DNA from: a virus
Lineage: Duplodnaviria > Caudoviricetes
Virus record (IMG/VR): IMGVR_UViG_3300048585_000089
Location: 1-57,709 of that record
Length of the DNA: 57,709 nucleotides
Direction: 5' to 3' (one strand)
Under the pieces are notes generated by a model. It was given only the letters and a program-made list of their open reading frames with translations, searched no databases and was not told the DNA's origin. A program made the position numbers and the translations under genes. Within the stretch, counting starts at the first letter, position 1; each line of letters opens with the position of its first letter. Below are positions 417 to 57,668 of this stretch, piece after piece.

Positions 417-3362
417 TCAACACTTTGAAAAACCACAGACTACGCATTTAATACAACCCTCTATATTAGCTATCTCCGTGCCACAATCAGGGCATTTATT
501 CTGATTTTTCGGCATAGCTAATTTAATTTGGGGCATATTAATTTTTTTAAAGTTTTGTTGAACCTCCTGCATTACTTTACCTATTACATTAGGACAAGAT
601 TTACCTTTAAGATTAGGATTCTTACCTGCTTGATATCTGAAGTTATCACAAACAACCGAATTCAATTGGTCTATTATCTCAGCTACTGGAACTCCATAGC
701 GCAAAGCAATTGAAATTAATCTAGATGTACCATCAGCAAATCCAGCACATCCGCCACCAGCACCAGTCCTAAGTAAAACTTCATAAATTGCATTAGGTAT
801 AGAGTTTATAGTTATTAGCATTTTACCACAGCCAGTAGACACTTGTTTTGTTAATCCGTTTAATTCAACAGGTCTAATTTCAGGTAATATTTCAACTACA
901 GCCGTCTCTATTTTCCTTTCTTTTCCTTTTAAAGGCTGACTTTCTCTACTACCATCACGATAAATGGTAATTCCTTTACAACCTAAATCATATGCTAATT
1001 TAAAGGCTTTTGATATTTCACCTACACTTACATCACTGTTAAAGTTAATAGTTTTGCTAACAGCATTATCTACGTTTTTTTGGAAGGCAGCTTGCATATG
1101 TACATGATCTATTGGAGATATTTCAGAGGCTTCTTTATAAATACTTACTAAATCCTCTAGACCATATACTTCACCTTTTTTACCTTCTGTTATAAAATAG
1201 TCAATAGTTTCATCCCGCAATATATTATCAGTATCTTTATGGGCAGCTCGAATATACTTCTTTACTTCTTCATTAATAAAATATAATTTACCACCATCAG
1301 CCAATTCTTTCTCATAAGATAATTTAAATATAGGTTCAATACCACTGGATACTCCAGCTATAACCGATATCGTACCAGTTGGGGCAATTGTTATGGTGCT
1401 AGCGTTCCGCATGGGTATGTGTGCTAAGCTCCAAACTGATTTCTCCCAATTAGGAAAAGGACCTCTTTTAACTGCCAATGCTGTAGAGGCCTTATGAGAT
1501 TCTTTTTGTATGAAGGACATTAAGGTAGTAGCTAATTCCAGAGCTGCTGGGCTATCATAGGGTATTTTAAGTTTGAATAGCATATCAGCCCAACCCATTA
1601 TACCTAAACCTATCTTACGATTAGCTTTAACCATATCGTCTATTTGCTTCAATGGATACTTACTCAAATCAATTATACAATCCAAAAAGTCTACGGCTAA
1701 ATGAACCGCCTCACAAAGATGTTCCATATTAATTGTGCCATCCTCATCCACCATATTAGCTAGATTTATTGAACCTAAATTACAGGCTTCATAAGGTAGC
1801 AAAGGTTGTTCGCCACAATTATGTATTAACACATGATTAGCAAAAAAGTTATGGCAATCTTCTACTTCCATATCATATACATCTTCGGTGTAATCTAATT
1901 CAGTTACAGATAATAAACGCATATTTACACCCACTGGATGTACATCTAATCTATTTTTCCAGTCTTTAGGTTCTTTTACTTTGGGTAACCACCTGCCCGT
2001 CGCAGGGCAATGATCTGCCCAATTTACATGGCCTATGTTTGTAGCGCTTGAGTGTTCTCCGTGCTCCATTATCTCCAAGTTACTAAAGGCGTTATTTTTA
2101 GGGTCATTATCTAAGTGATGTACATCTTTATCCTGCAGATCACCAAAATAATGTTTAGCAATAAAAACATGTTCAGCAGATACGCTTGCTGAAGTGCCAG
2201 TTAAATAACTCTTTACATATTTTTGGTTTTTTGGTGCCTTATTTAAAGCCACCATCCTATCTGTCTTTTGTAAATTCTGTGCTTCTATATAACCTCTATT
2301 GCGTGTATAAAATTTATGCTCAGGTGTACAAATAACATCACCCTTAGTTGTAGATACCTTAACCAGTTTAGCATCTCTTTTAGTCTTTCTAATGTTTTTT
2401 GCTTTACGTATAGTTAACTTATAATTTTCATCTACGCAGAATACATCAATTTCTGTGCCTACTAATTCTTCTATAGGTATCATGCCTTCTACAGTTTTAA
2501 TCAGAGTATCACCTACTACGCAGGGATTGGTAGCTTCAATTTCACCTAAGACAGGTATTGGATTATCTTTATTTATAATGTCTAGAAAGATTAAACCTGG
2601 TTCGCCTGTATTCCAAGCTCTTTGCACTATTTTATCCCATATCATCTTAGGATTAACTTTTGAATATATAGAACCCTGAAATTTTAAGGCAAAAGGTTTA
2701 TTATCTTCAAGACACTTCATAAATTCATATGTAATTCCTACAGACACATTGAAATTAGTTAATTCCTTTAAGTCTTGTTTAAGTTCAATAAATTCTAGAA
2801 TATCAGGATGGTCTACTCTAAGAATACCCATATTAGCGCCTCTTCTAGCTCCCCCTTGTTTAACAGCCTCAGTTGCGGCATTAAATACTCTCATAAAACT
2901 TATAGGTCCGCTAGCTTCACCTATTGTGCTACTTACAAGATCCCCTTTAGGTCTTAATTTAGAGAAGTTAAAGCCAGTCCCTCCACCCGTCTTTTGAATT
3001 ATGGCCATGTCTTTAATTGCTTGGAATATACCATCCATTGAATCTTCTACAGGTATAACAAAGCAAGCCGCTAATTGACCTAGGGTTCTTCCGGCATTCA
3101 TAATTGTGGGTGAGTTAGGTAAGAAATCTAATGAAGCCATTAAATTATAAAACTGATAGCATTTATTACCTGTTACTTGAGCGATATCATGCGTACTTCC
3201 CTTTATATAATCTTTGGCAACTTGTGATACTGCATTAGATATCCTATAAAACATTTGTTCTGGAGTCTCTCCACGCAAATACTTCTTCTCTAATACTTTT
3301 ATGGCATTTTCAGATAAAATTGGCGTACATAATTCATTTTCTGAATAATATTTCGAAAACAT
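417..3362 (-). CDS. nrdJ: Class II (adenosylcobalamin-dependent) ribonucleotide reductase with intein, C-terminal TSCPD-like domain and Zn ribbon
   Basis: PNSPTIMNAG, QLAACFV, QGGARRGANM, TNPC/GEQPL..EACNLGS, TIAPTGT motifs; C-terminal CPDCG..EGCIKC..CGFSKC; no nrdB-like gene in the window. Confidence 0.93.
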   Translation of the reverse strand: MFSKYYSENELCTPILSENAIKVLEKKYLRGETPEQMFYRISNAVSQVAKDYIKGSTHDIAQVTGNKCYQFYNLMASLDFLPNSPTIMNAGRTLGQLAACFVIPVEDSMDGIFQAIKDMAIIQKTGGGTGFNFSKLRPKGDLVSSTIGEASGPISFMRVFNAATEAVKQGGARRGANMGILRVDHPDILEFIELKQDLKELTNFNVSVGITYEFMKCLEDNKPFALKFQGSIYSKVNPKMIWDKIVQRAWNTGEPGLIFLDIINKDNPIPVLGEIEATNPCVVGDTLIKTVEGMIPIEELVGTEIDVFCVDENYKLTIRKAKNIRKTKRDAKLVKVSTTKGDVICTPEHKFYTRNRGYIEAQNLQKTDRMVALNKAPKNQKYVKSYLTGTSASVSAEHVFIAKHYFGDLQDKDVHHLDNDPKNNAFSNLEIMEHGEHSSATNIGHVNWADHCPATGRWLPKVKEPKDWKNRLDVHPVGVNMRLLSVTELDYTEDVYDMEVEDCHNFFANHVLIHNCGEQPLLPYEACNLGSINLANMVDEDGTINMEHLCEAVHLAVDFLDCIIDLSKYPLKQIDDMVKANRKIGLGIMGWADMLFKLKIPYDSPAALELATTLMSFIQKESHKASTALAVKRGPFPNWEKSVWSLAHIPMRNASTITIAPTGTISVIAGVSSGIEPIFKLSYEKELADGGKLYFINEEVKKYIRAAHKDTDNILRDETIDYFITEGKKGEVYGLEDLVSIYKEASEISPIDHVHMQAAFQKNVDNAVSKTINFNSDVSVGEISKAFKLAYDLGCKGITIYRDGSRESQPLKGKERKIETAVVEILPEIRPVELNGLTKQVSTGCGKMLITINSIPNAIYEVLLRTGAGGGCAGFADGTSRLISIALRYGVPVAEIIDQLNSVVCDNFRYQAGKNPNLKGKSCPNVIGKVMQEVQQNFKKINMPQIKLAMPKNQNKCPDCGTEIANIEGCIKCVVCGFSKC
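1818..2522 (-). mobile_element. 235-aa intein in nrdJ with HNH homing endonuclease domain
   Basis: Inserted at NP|CGE: starts CVVGDT, block B CTPEHKF, block F/G VYDMEVEDCHNFFANHVLIHN followed by Cys; internal VHHLDNDPKNNAFSNL (HNH). Confidence 0.92.
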
Positions 3363-3388
3363 ACATATTCCTCCTGTCAGTATAAGTG

Positions 3389-57009: not shown

Positions 57010-57029
57010 AAAAGAAAGAGGTGATCGAG

Positions 57030-57668
57030 ATGTCTTATAGGGTTTATTTAGCTGCTAGTACGCAGGCACATAATGTAGGTGTCGACAACTACGGTACTGA
57101 AGAAGAAAGGATGCAGTTCCTAGCTGATAGAGTCGCCTACTGGCTTAAGACACAGATTAGTAAATTTGATGTGTTTAGAAATAAGCCTGGATGGAGTCTA
57201 CAACAAACTATAAATGATTGCAACTCCTTAGCGTGTAATGTATTTATAGACAATCACTCAAACGCAGGTCCAGCTTCCTCCGCTGGTACTGAGGTTTACT
57301 ATTGTACTGGTTCCGCAATGGGTAAGGAACTAGCGGAACACTTGTATAACACTATAGCTCCCATATCACCTGGTGCGGATCGTGGTGTAAAAGAAGATGG
57401 TGTTTTATATTCTACTGGTTTAGCGGTACTGCGTAAAACAACACCTCCTGCGGCTTTAATAGAACATTTTTATCACTCCAATAAAATGGAAGTAGAACAC
57501 TTCATCAATAATATTGATCGATATGCAAAAGCCGAGGCTAAAGCTATATGTAATTATTTTAAGGTTGCTTGGATTGAATCTACTATTAACGCTTCTACCC
57601 GAAATGAAATTCAAGAGGCTATAAATAACGCGGAACAAATTATTAAAATCCTTAAGAAGCTATTATAA
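57030..57668 (+). CDS. N-acetylmuramoyl-L-alanine amidase (Amidase_3) endolysin
   Basis: VYLAASTQ..N..TEE, HSNA, GTEVYY, LAVLR...PAALIE; no obvious cell-wall-binding repeat. Confidence 0.88.
   Translation: MSYRVYLAASTQAHNVGVDNYGTEEERMQFLADRVAYWLKTQISKFDVFRNKPGWSLQQTINDCNSLACNVFIDNHSNAGPASSAGTEVYYCTGSAMGKELAEHLYNTIAPISPGADRGVKEDGVLYSTGLAVLRKTTPPAALIEHFYHSNKMEVEHFINNIDRYAKAEAKAICNYFKVAWIESTINASTRNEIQEAINNAEQIIKILKKLL

Follow-up and report, generated by a model that had tools for sequence, protein, structure and literature searches.

A strand-polar eight-nucleotide word dispersed over a siphovirus-type phage genome and its possible reading by the phage replication machinery

Archaeo-eukaryotic primase (AEP)-type primase-polymerases (prim-pols) read short words on their template: GTG for pRN1 ORF904, 5'-TTTGGTTA-3' and GTG for NrS-1, and 5'-CCAAC-3' for GP55 of the lactococcal phage 1706. 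Passages of the NrS-1 literature describe the recognition of an 8-nt template word, with initiation at the base that adjoins it on the 5' side, and also the dispensability of this 8-mer in favour of GTG (PMC8718748); for GP55, an excerpt of the source (PMC12205980) gives recognition of 5'-CCAAC/CCCAAC-3' and a start on C with GTP. Exact words are also known from phages with nicked genomes: parts of two reports give 5'-TACT/RTGMC-3' at 14 sites in phage tf (PMC3517423, which also quotes the bipartite phiKMV nick consensus CGACxxxxxCCTA/CTCCGG) and WACTRTGAC at 13 sites in Rembedalsseter, enriched in 61 phages with 88% of the copies in coding sequences (PMC11780129). Here we analyse the word CTGGTRCG (CTGGTACG and CTGGTGCG) in the IMG/VR virus record IMGVR_UViG_3300048585_000089, a linear sequence of 57,709 b taken over its whole length (the window, or G000 where it is compared with the related records G001-G020). 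Exact dispersed phage words are rare and poorly understood, the function being unknown even for the T5 and tf nick motifs. CTGGTRCG combines occurrence on both strands, even spacing on each of them and a one-sided flank, properties undescribed for the known cases compared, which together indicate a process that reads single strands directionally.

CTGGTACG is present in 19 copies in the window (10 on the + strand and 9 on the - strand) and CTGGTGCG in 6 (5 and 1, respectively). An earlier reading of the sequence alone had listed these 25 positions and strands, all of them exact on recount, and had expected less than one copy by chance; 100 dinucleotide-preserving shuffles give 0.34 copies per word, with maxima of 3 (CTGGTACG) and 2 (CTGGTGCG), and the GC content, which it had put at ~33%, is 0.35. 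No other 8-mer of the window comes near the over-representation of CTGGTACG (z 28), the runners-up overlapping it, and the word is sharp, since the 48 possible one-mismatch words account for just 31 sites in total (22 words, 1-5 copies each). Within open reading frames (ORFs), 20 copies were found vs 2.12 ± 1.43 after synonymous-codon shuffling (n=300, maximum 8), and the same comparison in the other four of the five genomes G000-G004 gave 25 vs 2.2, 28 vs 3.3, 15 vs 3.9 and 12 vs 2.0. Consequently, neither protein sequence nor codon usage explains the enrichment, as the sequence-only reading had maintained, a coding artefact is ruled out, and selection acts on the DNA, at synonymous sites. 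The exception is a few sites overlapping conserved peptides, among them the site in the SNF2 helicase gene, which is at the orthologous place in G001, G002 and G004, within what we take to be the SNF2 'LTGTP' motif. Structured RNA was discarded as an origin, as Rfam searches at E <= 1 gave tRNA-like matches only. A literature search for the 8-mer found it in primers only, with no description of the word, and a search combining primase recognition with over-representation found nothing relevant to it among the papers listed; the details of the word are therefore not described in the papers searched.

Relatives were collected via the capsid protein and via the prim-pol. The word is enriched in ten of these records: G001 (26 copies), G002 (29), G003 (19), G004 (12) and G005 (8), with 0-2 copies of the reversed word as a control, and G016 (21), G017 (16), G018 (8), G019 (7) and G020 (10), with 0-3 copies of the control; G005 carries in addition 37 copies of the shorter CTGGTAC, vs 11.7±2.8 after codon shuffling. 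The dispersed word is thus confirmed as real and conserved. Ten further capsid relatives (G006-G015) have 0-3 copies, the chance level. What separates the two groups is gene content: all the word-bearing genomes share the replication, recombination and 7-deazaguanine gene block of the window, the word-free ones checked (G006-G010) share its structural genes only, and the word is enriched at 10 of the 11 prim-pol loci. The word therefore travels with the replication gene block and not with the structural genes, and the attempt to single out its reader by co-occurrence failed, the block being inherited whole. Individual sites turn over (G001 retains 6 of the 9 sites that could be aligned, and none of 7 site alignments with G002-G005 shows a kept site) while the density of the word is kept. 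From the sequence-only inference of a phage-encoded recognition system, these results retain a phage-encoded system acting on DNA, unrelated to coding and tracking the replication and nucleotide-modification block.

The anatomy of the sites is one-sided. In each of the genomes G000-G004, only the core and the ten positions 5' of it (-10 to -1) are informative, the information content at +8 to +29 being close to zero. G is depleted at -10 to -1 (7 of 250 cells in G000, 10 of 260 in G001 and 5 of 190 in G003, that is 2.6-3.8%), a depletion that in G002 and G004 affects mainly -6 to -1. C and A are abundant in the tract; the base at -1 is A or C at every site of G000 and G001, G003, whose consensus is longer (cACCCACaCCTGGTACG), has one T there, and CCAAC spans the junction of tract and core at five G000 sites. 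The CC(A/C)(A/C) prefix pointed out earlier is real, as part of this tract. Further upstream on the same strand, a GCGG starts 24-45 nt before the core at 13 of the 25 G000 sites (binomial p 1e-14, background 0.026 per site), the number that the sequence-only reading had given as a minimum, and at 11/26 sites in G001 (p 1e-10), 7/19 in G003 (p 4e-6), 5/29 in G002 (p 0.012) and 4/12 in G004 (p 0.0014). The element is mostly (C)GCGGA, and CGCGGA alone is over-represented 2-4.6-fold in G000-G004. Three controls gave 0 sites in G000 (GCGG 46-67 nt upstream, CCGC in the 24-45 window, GCGG within 25 nt downstream), and the control windows gave 0-3 sites across the five genomes. There is no fixed spacing: the distance between the starts of GCGG and core is 24-40 nt in G001 and 30-41 nt in G000, where the variable spacing reported earlier takes the form of a broad peak and is not uniform. 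The upstream GCGG(A) may serve as a further recognition word of lesser strength, or mark a point of hand-off. A scan of viral contigs with the bipartite pattern returned 116 matches, mostly single chance matches in GC-rich contigs. A hairpin of GCGG and core, of the kind seen in ssi-like single-strand signals, was rejected, as 42 bipartite segments showed no gain in folding over their shuffles (mean z 0.05, vs -0.04 for random 35-mers).

In this phage and its relatives each strand carries the word about once per 4-5 kb. Copies on the same strand avoid each other. This pattern was first seen in G000-G004, where 3 same-strand gaps of at most 600 bp were found vs 12.2 at random (P 0.0004), 5 vs 19.3 of at most 1000 bp and 6 vs 27.5 of at most 1500 bp (0 of 5000 simulations as low in both cases). 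It was then tested on G016-G020, a replication that is phylogenetically non-independent as these records are related to the first five, giving 0 vs 4.6 (P 0.006), 0 vs 7.5 (P 0.0002) and 3 vs 10.8 (P 0.0006) at the same three limits. Pairs on opposite strands are near random in G000-G004 (28 vs 29.4 at up to 1500 bp; 18 vs 11.8 at up to 600 bp, P 0.044) and at expectation in G016-G020. Inverted pairing of sites, suggested by 18 opposite-strand vs 3 same-strand close pairs, was accordingly rejected, the effect being same-strand avoidance and not pairing. The median same-strand gap is ~4 kb in G000-G002 and 6-6.4 kb in G003 and G004, with a coefficient of variation (CV) of 0.58-0.73, whereas the enriched words TAGTAGAT (G007), TTGTAGAT (G009) and CTGGTAC (G005) are spaced randomly (CV ~1). 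The split between + and - strands is 15/10 in G000, 15/11 in G001, 9/20 in G002 and 12/7 in G003. The two orientations thus behave as if they were distinct channels, with a separate demand for coverage on either strand, which we take to indicate that the signal is read on a single strand, or else by a machine with one direction of travel.

The sites are also blind to genes. Counted with simple ORF calls of our own over G000-G004, the 100 intragenic sites comprise 46 sense and 54 antisense copies; of all 111 sites, 13 are not within an ORF of 60 aa or more, vs 9.7% of non-coding DNA (p 0.28), and position within genes is uniform (Kolmogorov-Smirnov p 0.62). Sense copies are mostly read NCT-GGT-RCG (35/46) and antisense copies most often as V/A-P (30/54), which in our reading suggests that the word is placed wherever the protein can tolerate it. 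The gene-blind placement and the variable spacing of the two elements both speak against a role tied to genes, whether as promoters, as stoperator-like roadblocks or otherwise. A promoter for a phage sigma factor or host sigma-70 was considered, since four intergenic sites looked like a -35/17/-10/+1 arrangement by eye, and was rejected: a sigma-70 consensus scan passes over the sites, there is no intergenic or orientation bias in the five genomes, and both the co-oriented placement upstream of genes and the fixed spacing (within 1-2 nt) of sigma-dependent promoters are missing.

Three known kinds of signal suit a polar, gene-blind word whose density is kept: primase words, nick sites and Chi-like words, all of them among the options of the sequence-only reading. 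We rank priming first, followed by nick sites and then, level with each other, Chi-like signals and duplex-binding sites, leaving the rest of our expectation to something that we have not considered. Tentatively, CTGGTRCG would be a polar, single-strand-specific signal of the replication machinery of the phage, most likely the template recognition word of its prim-pol-helicase (Table 1). Priming comes first because the one-sided anatomy matches that of AEP prim-pols, because the prim-pol of the window is in that family and because a need to prime both strands at intervals would give the strand independence and the spacing. The prim-pol has a Pfam Prim-Pol match (E 1.6e-25), and its catalytic domain aligns with pRN1 ORF904 (Z 12.4, rmsd 3.8, 167 residues aligned) and with NrS-1 N300 (Z 8.3-8.6), so that it belongs to the pRN1 ORF904/NrS-1 structural family; a predicted helical domain follows at residues 254-356, with helices modelled at 267-356 at a pLDDT of 80-90. 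As in the AEP prim-pol systems, a prim-pol of the same fold is encoded, followed by a putative helical domain and an SF3 helicase, and the word comes after, on the 3' side, a tract of unusual composition in its own strand, with no conservation beyond the word. Unlike the words of those systems, which are 3-5 nt long or dispensable and for which genome seeding is unreported, CTGGTRCG is an exact 8-mer with a flank and exceeds chance ~70-fold; its copies are spaced evenly along either strand, and a GCGG comes in addition, at a distance of 24-45 nt.

In the proposed mechanism, the helical domain of the prim-pol would read 5'-CTGGTRCG-3' on the single-stranded template, primer synthesis would start within the neighbouring G-free, C-rich tract on the 5' side and yield a G-rich primer, and selection would keep a start signal every few kb on each strand where coding allows, so that both strands could be primed whichever the direction of the fork. 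We infer here the prim-pol as the reader, the start of priming at the sites and any role of GCGG(A). If it is the prim-pol that reads the word, the phage would offer the first example of a primase whose sequence requirement has moulded its own genome, and an uncomplicated means for a virus to keep priming to itself. A further, somewhat less probable, elaboration is a phage-private priming code, in which the pRN1/NrS-1-type prim-pol-helicase would require the 8-nt word on the single-stranded template, possibly with 7-deazaguanine-modified G's, its regular seeding would confine priming or restart to phage DNA, and CTGGTAC (G005) and cACCCACaCCTGGTACG (G003) would be co-evolved dialects.

Several observations weigh against the priming reading. 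There is no documented genome seeded with a long primase word, the known words being of 3-5 nt and the NrS-1 8-mer dispensable; the model does not account for the GCGG found 24-45 nt upstream; and the largest same-strand gaps (11.6 kb in G000, ~20 kb in G017 and G019) are wide for obligatory Okazaki starts. With A or C as the first template base (-1), the primer would often be T-initiated unless the enzyme skips to a C. The helical domain is weakly identified, with a PriCT_1 match (E 6.6e-4) below the Pfam cut-off and NrS-1 alignments of the helical part that reach residue 327 at an rmsd of ~12 Å. The joint inheritance of the replication block means that co-occurrence does not separate the prim-pol from the HNH endonuclease, the nuclease, the helix-turn-helix (HTH) proteins or the sigma protein, and even spacing would arise from any function needing coverage of each strand.

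The only documented precedent for an exact asymmetric word of 8-9 nt, far above chance, mostly in coding DNA and conserved across divergent phages, is that of the nick words, and programmed single-strand interruptions are a possible explanation, less probable than priming. In mature DNA the strand bearing the word would be cut by a phage nickase, for which the conserved HNH endonuclease of Table 1 is the obvious candidate, as happens in T5 and in phiKMV-like and tf-like phages, and the encoded ligase would reseal it after infection; the block that co-occurs with the word includes both an HNH endonuclease and an ATP-dependent ligase, although the endonuclease matches solved structures over the HNH motif only. 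CTGGTRCG resembles the tf, Rembedalsseter, phiKMV and T5 words in being exact and asymmetric with one or two degenerate positions, in having 13-29 copies vs <1 expected, and in being mostly intragenic and conserved across a phage group despite divergence; its sharpness and the turnover of sites at a kept density also suit nicking. The known nick sites, however, all share a single strand, and those of the tf group crowd into one side of the genome, whereas here both strands carry evenly spaced copies, and the G-free one-sided flank and the variable distance to GCGG have no counterpart in nick systems. Were nicking the function, it would extend programmed nicking to both strands and to a new uncultured phage group with a 7-deazaguanine pathway.

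Chi words are short signals (E. coli GCTGGTGG; Bacillus AGCGG), and a Chi-like role for CTGGTRCG, which we consider improbable, would have a strand-tracking helicase-nuclease (host AddAB/RecBCD, or the PD-(D/E)XK nuclease and a helicase of the phage) switch from degradation to recombination at the word, protecting the phage DNA and feeding Sak4 and SSB. The likeness lies in an asymmetric, sharp and over-represented word of 8 nt, independent of frame and coding, in both orientations and kept in density and not in position, with the polar per-strand behaviour expected for the signal of a translocating enzyme; the PD-(D/E)XK nuclease, the SNF2 helicase, Sak4 and SSB all belong to the co-occurring block. 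The information of Chi is, however, confined to its core, unlike the 5' tract and upstream GCGG found here, the word follows a gene block of the phage, and the Chi sites of bacterial chromosomes are not known to be evenly spaced.

In Cluster A mycobacteriophages, which are temperate and have an immunity repressor, the orientation of the stoperators follows transcription. The present word recalls them in being asymmetric and dispersed, in 20-30 copies or so, inside and between genes. Stoperator-like or DNA-organising sites for the tandem-HTH proteins had been among the options of the sequence-only reading; duplex binding by a regulator or organiser (the 280-aa multi-HTH, the 118-aa HTH or the sigma-like protein), at promoters, roadblocks or compaction sites, we find as unlikely as a Chi-like role. 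In its favour, five to seven G000 sites are intergenic and 22-48 nt ahead of a gene start, the two elements could suit a multi-domain HTH protein, and a sigma region-2 protein is encoded. Against it stand the indifference to intergenic DNA, to position within genes and to transcription described above (bipartite sites are, by our count, 10 co-oriented and 3 antisense in G000, 4 and 7 in G001), the sigma-70 scan, the scan of 50 window ORFs, which matched no repressor or integrase family, and a same-strand avoidance with independent strands that is unexpected for a binder of duplex DNA. The distance between the elements, moreover, ranges over more than 15 nt, a latitude that suits neither a sigma factor nor a protein gripping the duplex rigidly. 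Whatever its reader, the word is a cheap sequence marker for the clade and defines clear oligonucleotide substrates for biochemistry.

Table 1 CTGGTRCG sites of the window and candidate reader proteins. The core is CTGGTACG unless CTGGTGCG is named.
Feature	Positions	Strand	Elements and context
Bipartite site	1371..1410	-	core 1371-1378, GCGGA 1406-1410; within ribonucleotide reductase gene, sense
Bipartite site	4720..4767	+	GCGGA 4720, core 4760-4767; DNA polymerase gene, antisense; kept in G001
Bipartite site	7093..7135	-	core 7093-7100, GCGGA 7131-7135; intergenic, QueC / dCMP deaminase
Core only, CTGGTGCG	8896..8903	+	GTP cyclohydrolase gene, antisense
Core only, CTGGTGCG	13996..14003	-	PD-(D/E)XK exonuclease gene, sense
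Core only	14387..14394	+	PD-(D/E)XK exonuclease gene, antisense
Bipartite site	15971..16008	+	GCGGA 15971, core 16001-16008; SNF2 helicase gene, antisense
Bipartite site	21519..21557	+	GCGGG 21519, core 21550-21557; prim-pol gene, sense; kept in G001
Bipartite site	21762..21801	-	core 21762-21769, GCGGA 21797-21801; prim-pol gene, antisense; kept in G001
Core only	24384..24391	-	UvrD-like helicase gene, antisense
Bipartite site, CTGGTGCG	25652..25694	+	GCGGA 25652, core 25687-25694; intergenic, 27 nt ahead of ORF at 25722
Core only	26313..26320	-	non-coding low-complexity stretch
Bipartite site, CTGGTGCG	28360..28401	+	GCGGA 28360, core 28394-28401; probably intergenic (just a 69-aa antisense ORF)
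Bipartite site, CTGGTGCG	31065..31106	+	GCGGA 31065, core 31099-31106; small terminase ORF, 5' part
Bipartite site	32021..32069	+	GCGGA 32021, core 32062-32069; directly upstream of large terminase gene, then A16 run
Core only	37875..37882	-	scaffold gene, antisense; kept in G001
Bipartite site	39617..39659	+	GCGGA 39617, core 39652-39659; intergenic, 22 nt ahead of ORF at 39682
Core only	44531..44538	-	tape measure gene, antisense
Bipartite site	46268..46316	+	GCGGA 46268, core 46309-46316; tape measure gene end, sense
Core only	49433..49440	+	tail gene 48633-50171, sense
Core only, no C/A tract	49816..49823	+	tail gene 48633-50171; in one of three close same-strand pairs in five genomes
Core only	49930..49937	+	tail gene 48633-50171
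Core only	51935..51942	-	ORF 51408-52295, antisense
Core only	54926..54933	-	ORF 54135-54971, antisense
Bipartite site, CTGGTGCG	57333..57377	+	GCGGA 57333, core 57370-57377; endolysin gene, sense
Prim-pol-helicase, 796 aa	21177..23567	+	candidate reader (priming); Prim-Pol 11-185, helical domain ~255-356, D5_N, SF3 helicase
HNH endonuclease, conserved, 249 aa	17953..18702	-	candidate reader (nicks)
PD-(D/E)XK nuclease	13521..14885	-	candidate partner (Chi-like); adjoins Sak4 and SNF2 helicase
Multi-HTH protein, 280 aa	18817..19659	-	reader candidate, disfavoured
Sigma-70 region 2 protein, 233 aa	17164..17865	-	reader candidate, disfavoured

The window is the complete IMG/VR record, ~76% complete as a genome by the CheckV estimate, and comes from a siphovirus-type phage. 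The minus strand of the first 1-20 kb encodes, in order, ribonucleotide reductase, family A DNA polymerase, a conserved 263-aa protein and dCMP deaminase; then QueC, a MazG/kinase fusion, GTP cyclohydrolase I, QueE, QueD, SSB and Sak4; and then the PD-(D/E)XK nuclease, the SNF2 helicase, the sigma region-2 protein, the HNH endonuclease and the multi-HTH protein. From 20 kb the plus strand encodes the ATP-dependent ligase, the prim-pol-helicase, a UvrD-like helicase, the structural genes and an Amidase_3 endolysin. The phage has no close cultured relative: no near-identical DNA was found in the phage collection, and identity reaches at most 48% for the capsid protein, 26% for the prim-pol and 32% for the 263-aa protein. 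The scan of 50 window ORFs of this partly complete record gave no PHROG match to an integrase or repressor family.

The 7-deazaguanine precursor pathway (GTP cyclohydrolase I, QueD, QueE and QueC) lies at 5820-10252 (-) together with the MazG/kinase fusion and the 263-aa protein. No TGT/DpdA-type family was matched among the window ORFs scanned, and the 263-aa protein may fill this gap, as an enzyme of base exchange or one acting at the nucleotide level. It has no match in Pfam or in a PDB sequence search; distant relatives are encoded by Campylobacter phage CP220, by Cellulophaga phage phiST and by phages resembling Bacillus BSP7. A tRNA gene at 11855-11926 (-) (Rfam tRNA, 38.9 bits) has, according to ARAGORN, a four-base anticodon 'ccta' in an enlarged loop and could be an amber or frameshift suppressor, despite which TAG is the ordinary stop in 17 of the 60 ORFs of at least 80 aa; a second tRNA-like match at 11109-11176 is weak (27 bits, below threshold). 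The large terminase ORF (32069-34654 (+), 861 aa) has a LAGLIDADG-like insert at about residues 323-377, and the ribonucleotide reductase (417-3362 (-)) an HNH insert at about residues 367-445, both of them probably inteins; in G001 and G003 the terminase region has another arrangement.

Some features of the host were hinted at by the genes of the window, as leads only. The sigma region-2 protein has the sporulation sigmas K and F as its best solved relatives, the nearest Atlas clusters of the endolysin are mostly from Bacillota, and AGGAGG is strongly enriched, suggesting a strong use of Shine-Dalgarno sequences; together these hint at a spore-forming host among the Bacillota. A scan of genome contigs with the endolysin, made for host identification, gave no match. 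A perfect sigma-70 consensus promoter (TTGACA-17 nt-TATAAT) lies at 30005-30033 (+), upstream of the gene for the 118-aa HTH protein.

The surroundings of two sites are of unusual composition: the A16 run (32072-32087) directly follows the site at 32062, ahead of the terminase coding region, and the non-coding stretch around the site at 26313 (26285-26400) consists of GGAGGGAGGAGGGAGG followed by repeated ATGGAGAGATTG-like units. The record ends at 57701-57709 with CTGGTACCG, a one-mismatch form of the word that is probably there by coincidence. Among the relatives, the capsid relatives G007, G008 and G009 (L219-L229), which have another replication block, carry other hugely over-represented words on both strands (TAGTAGAT ×65 in G007, TTGTAGAT ×55 in G009, CGCCGCGG ×12-31), partly in 37-bp terminal tandem repeats. 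G005 (L214) has 8 GGGCGCCC palindromes within 2 kb of mostly non-coding DNA (record positions 20978-22914), an arrangement resembling an origin or an operator array.

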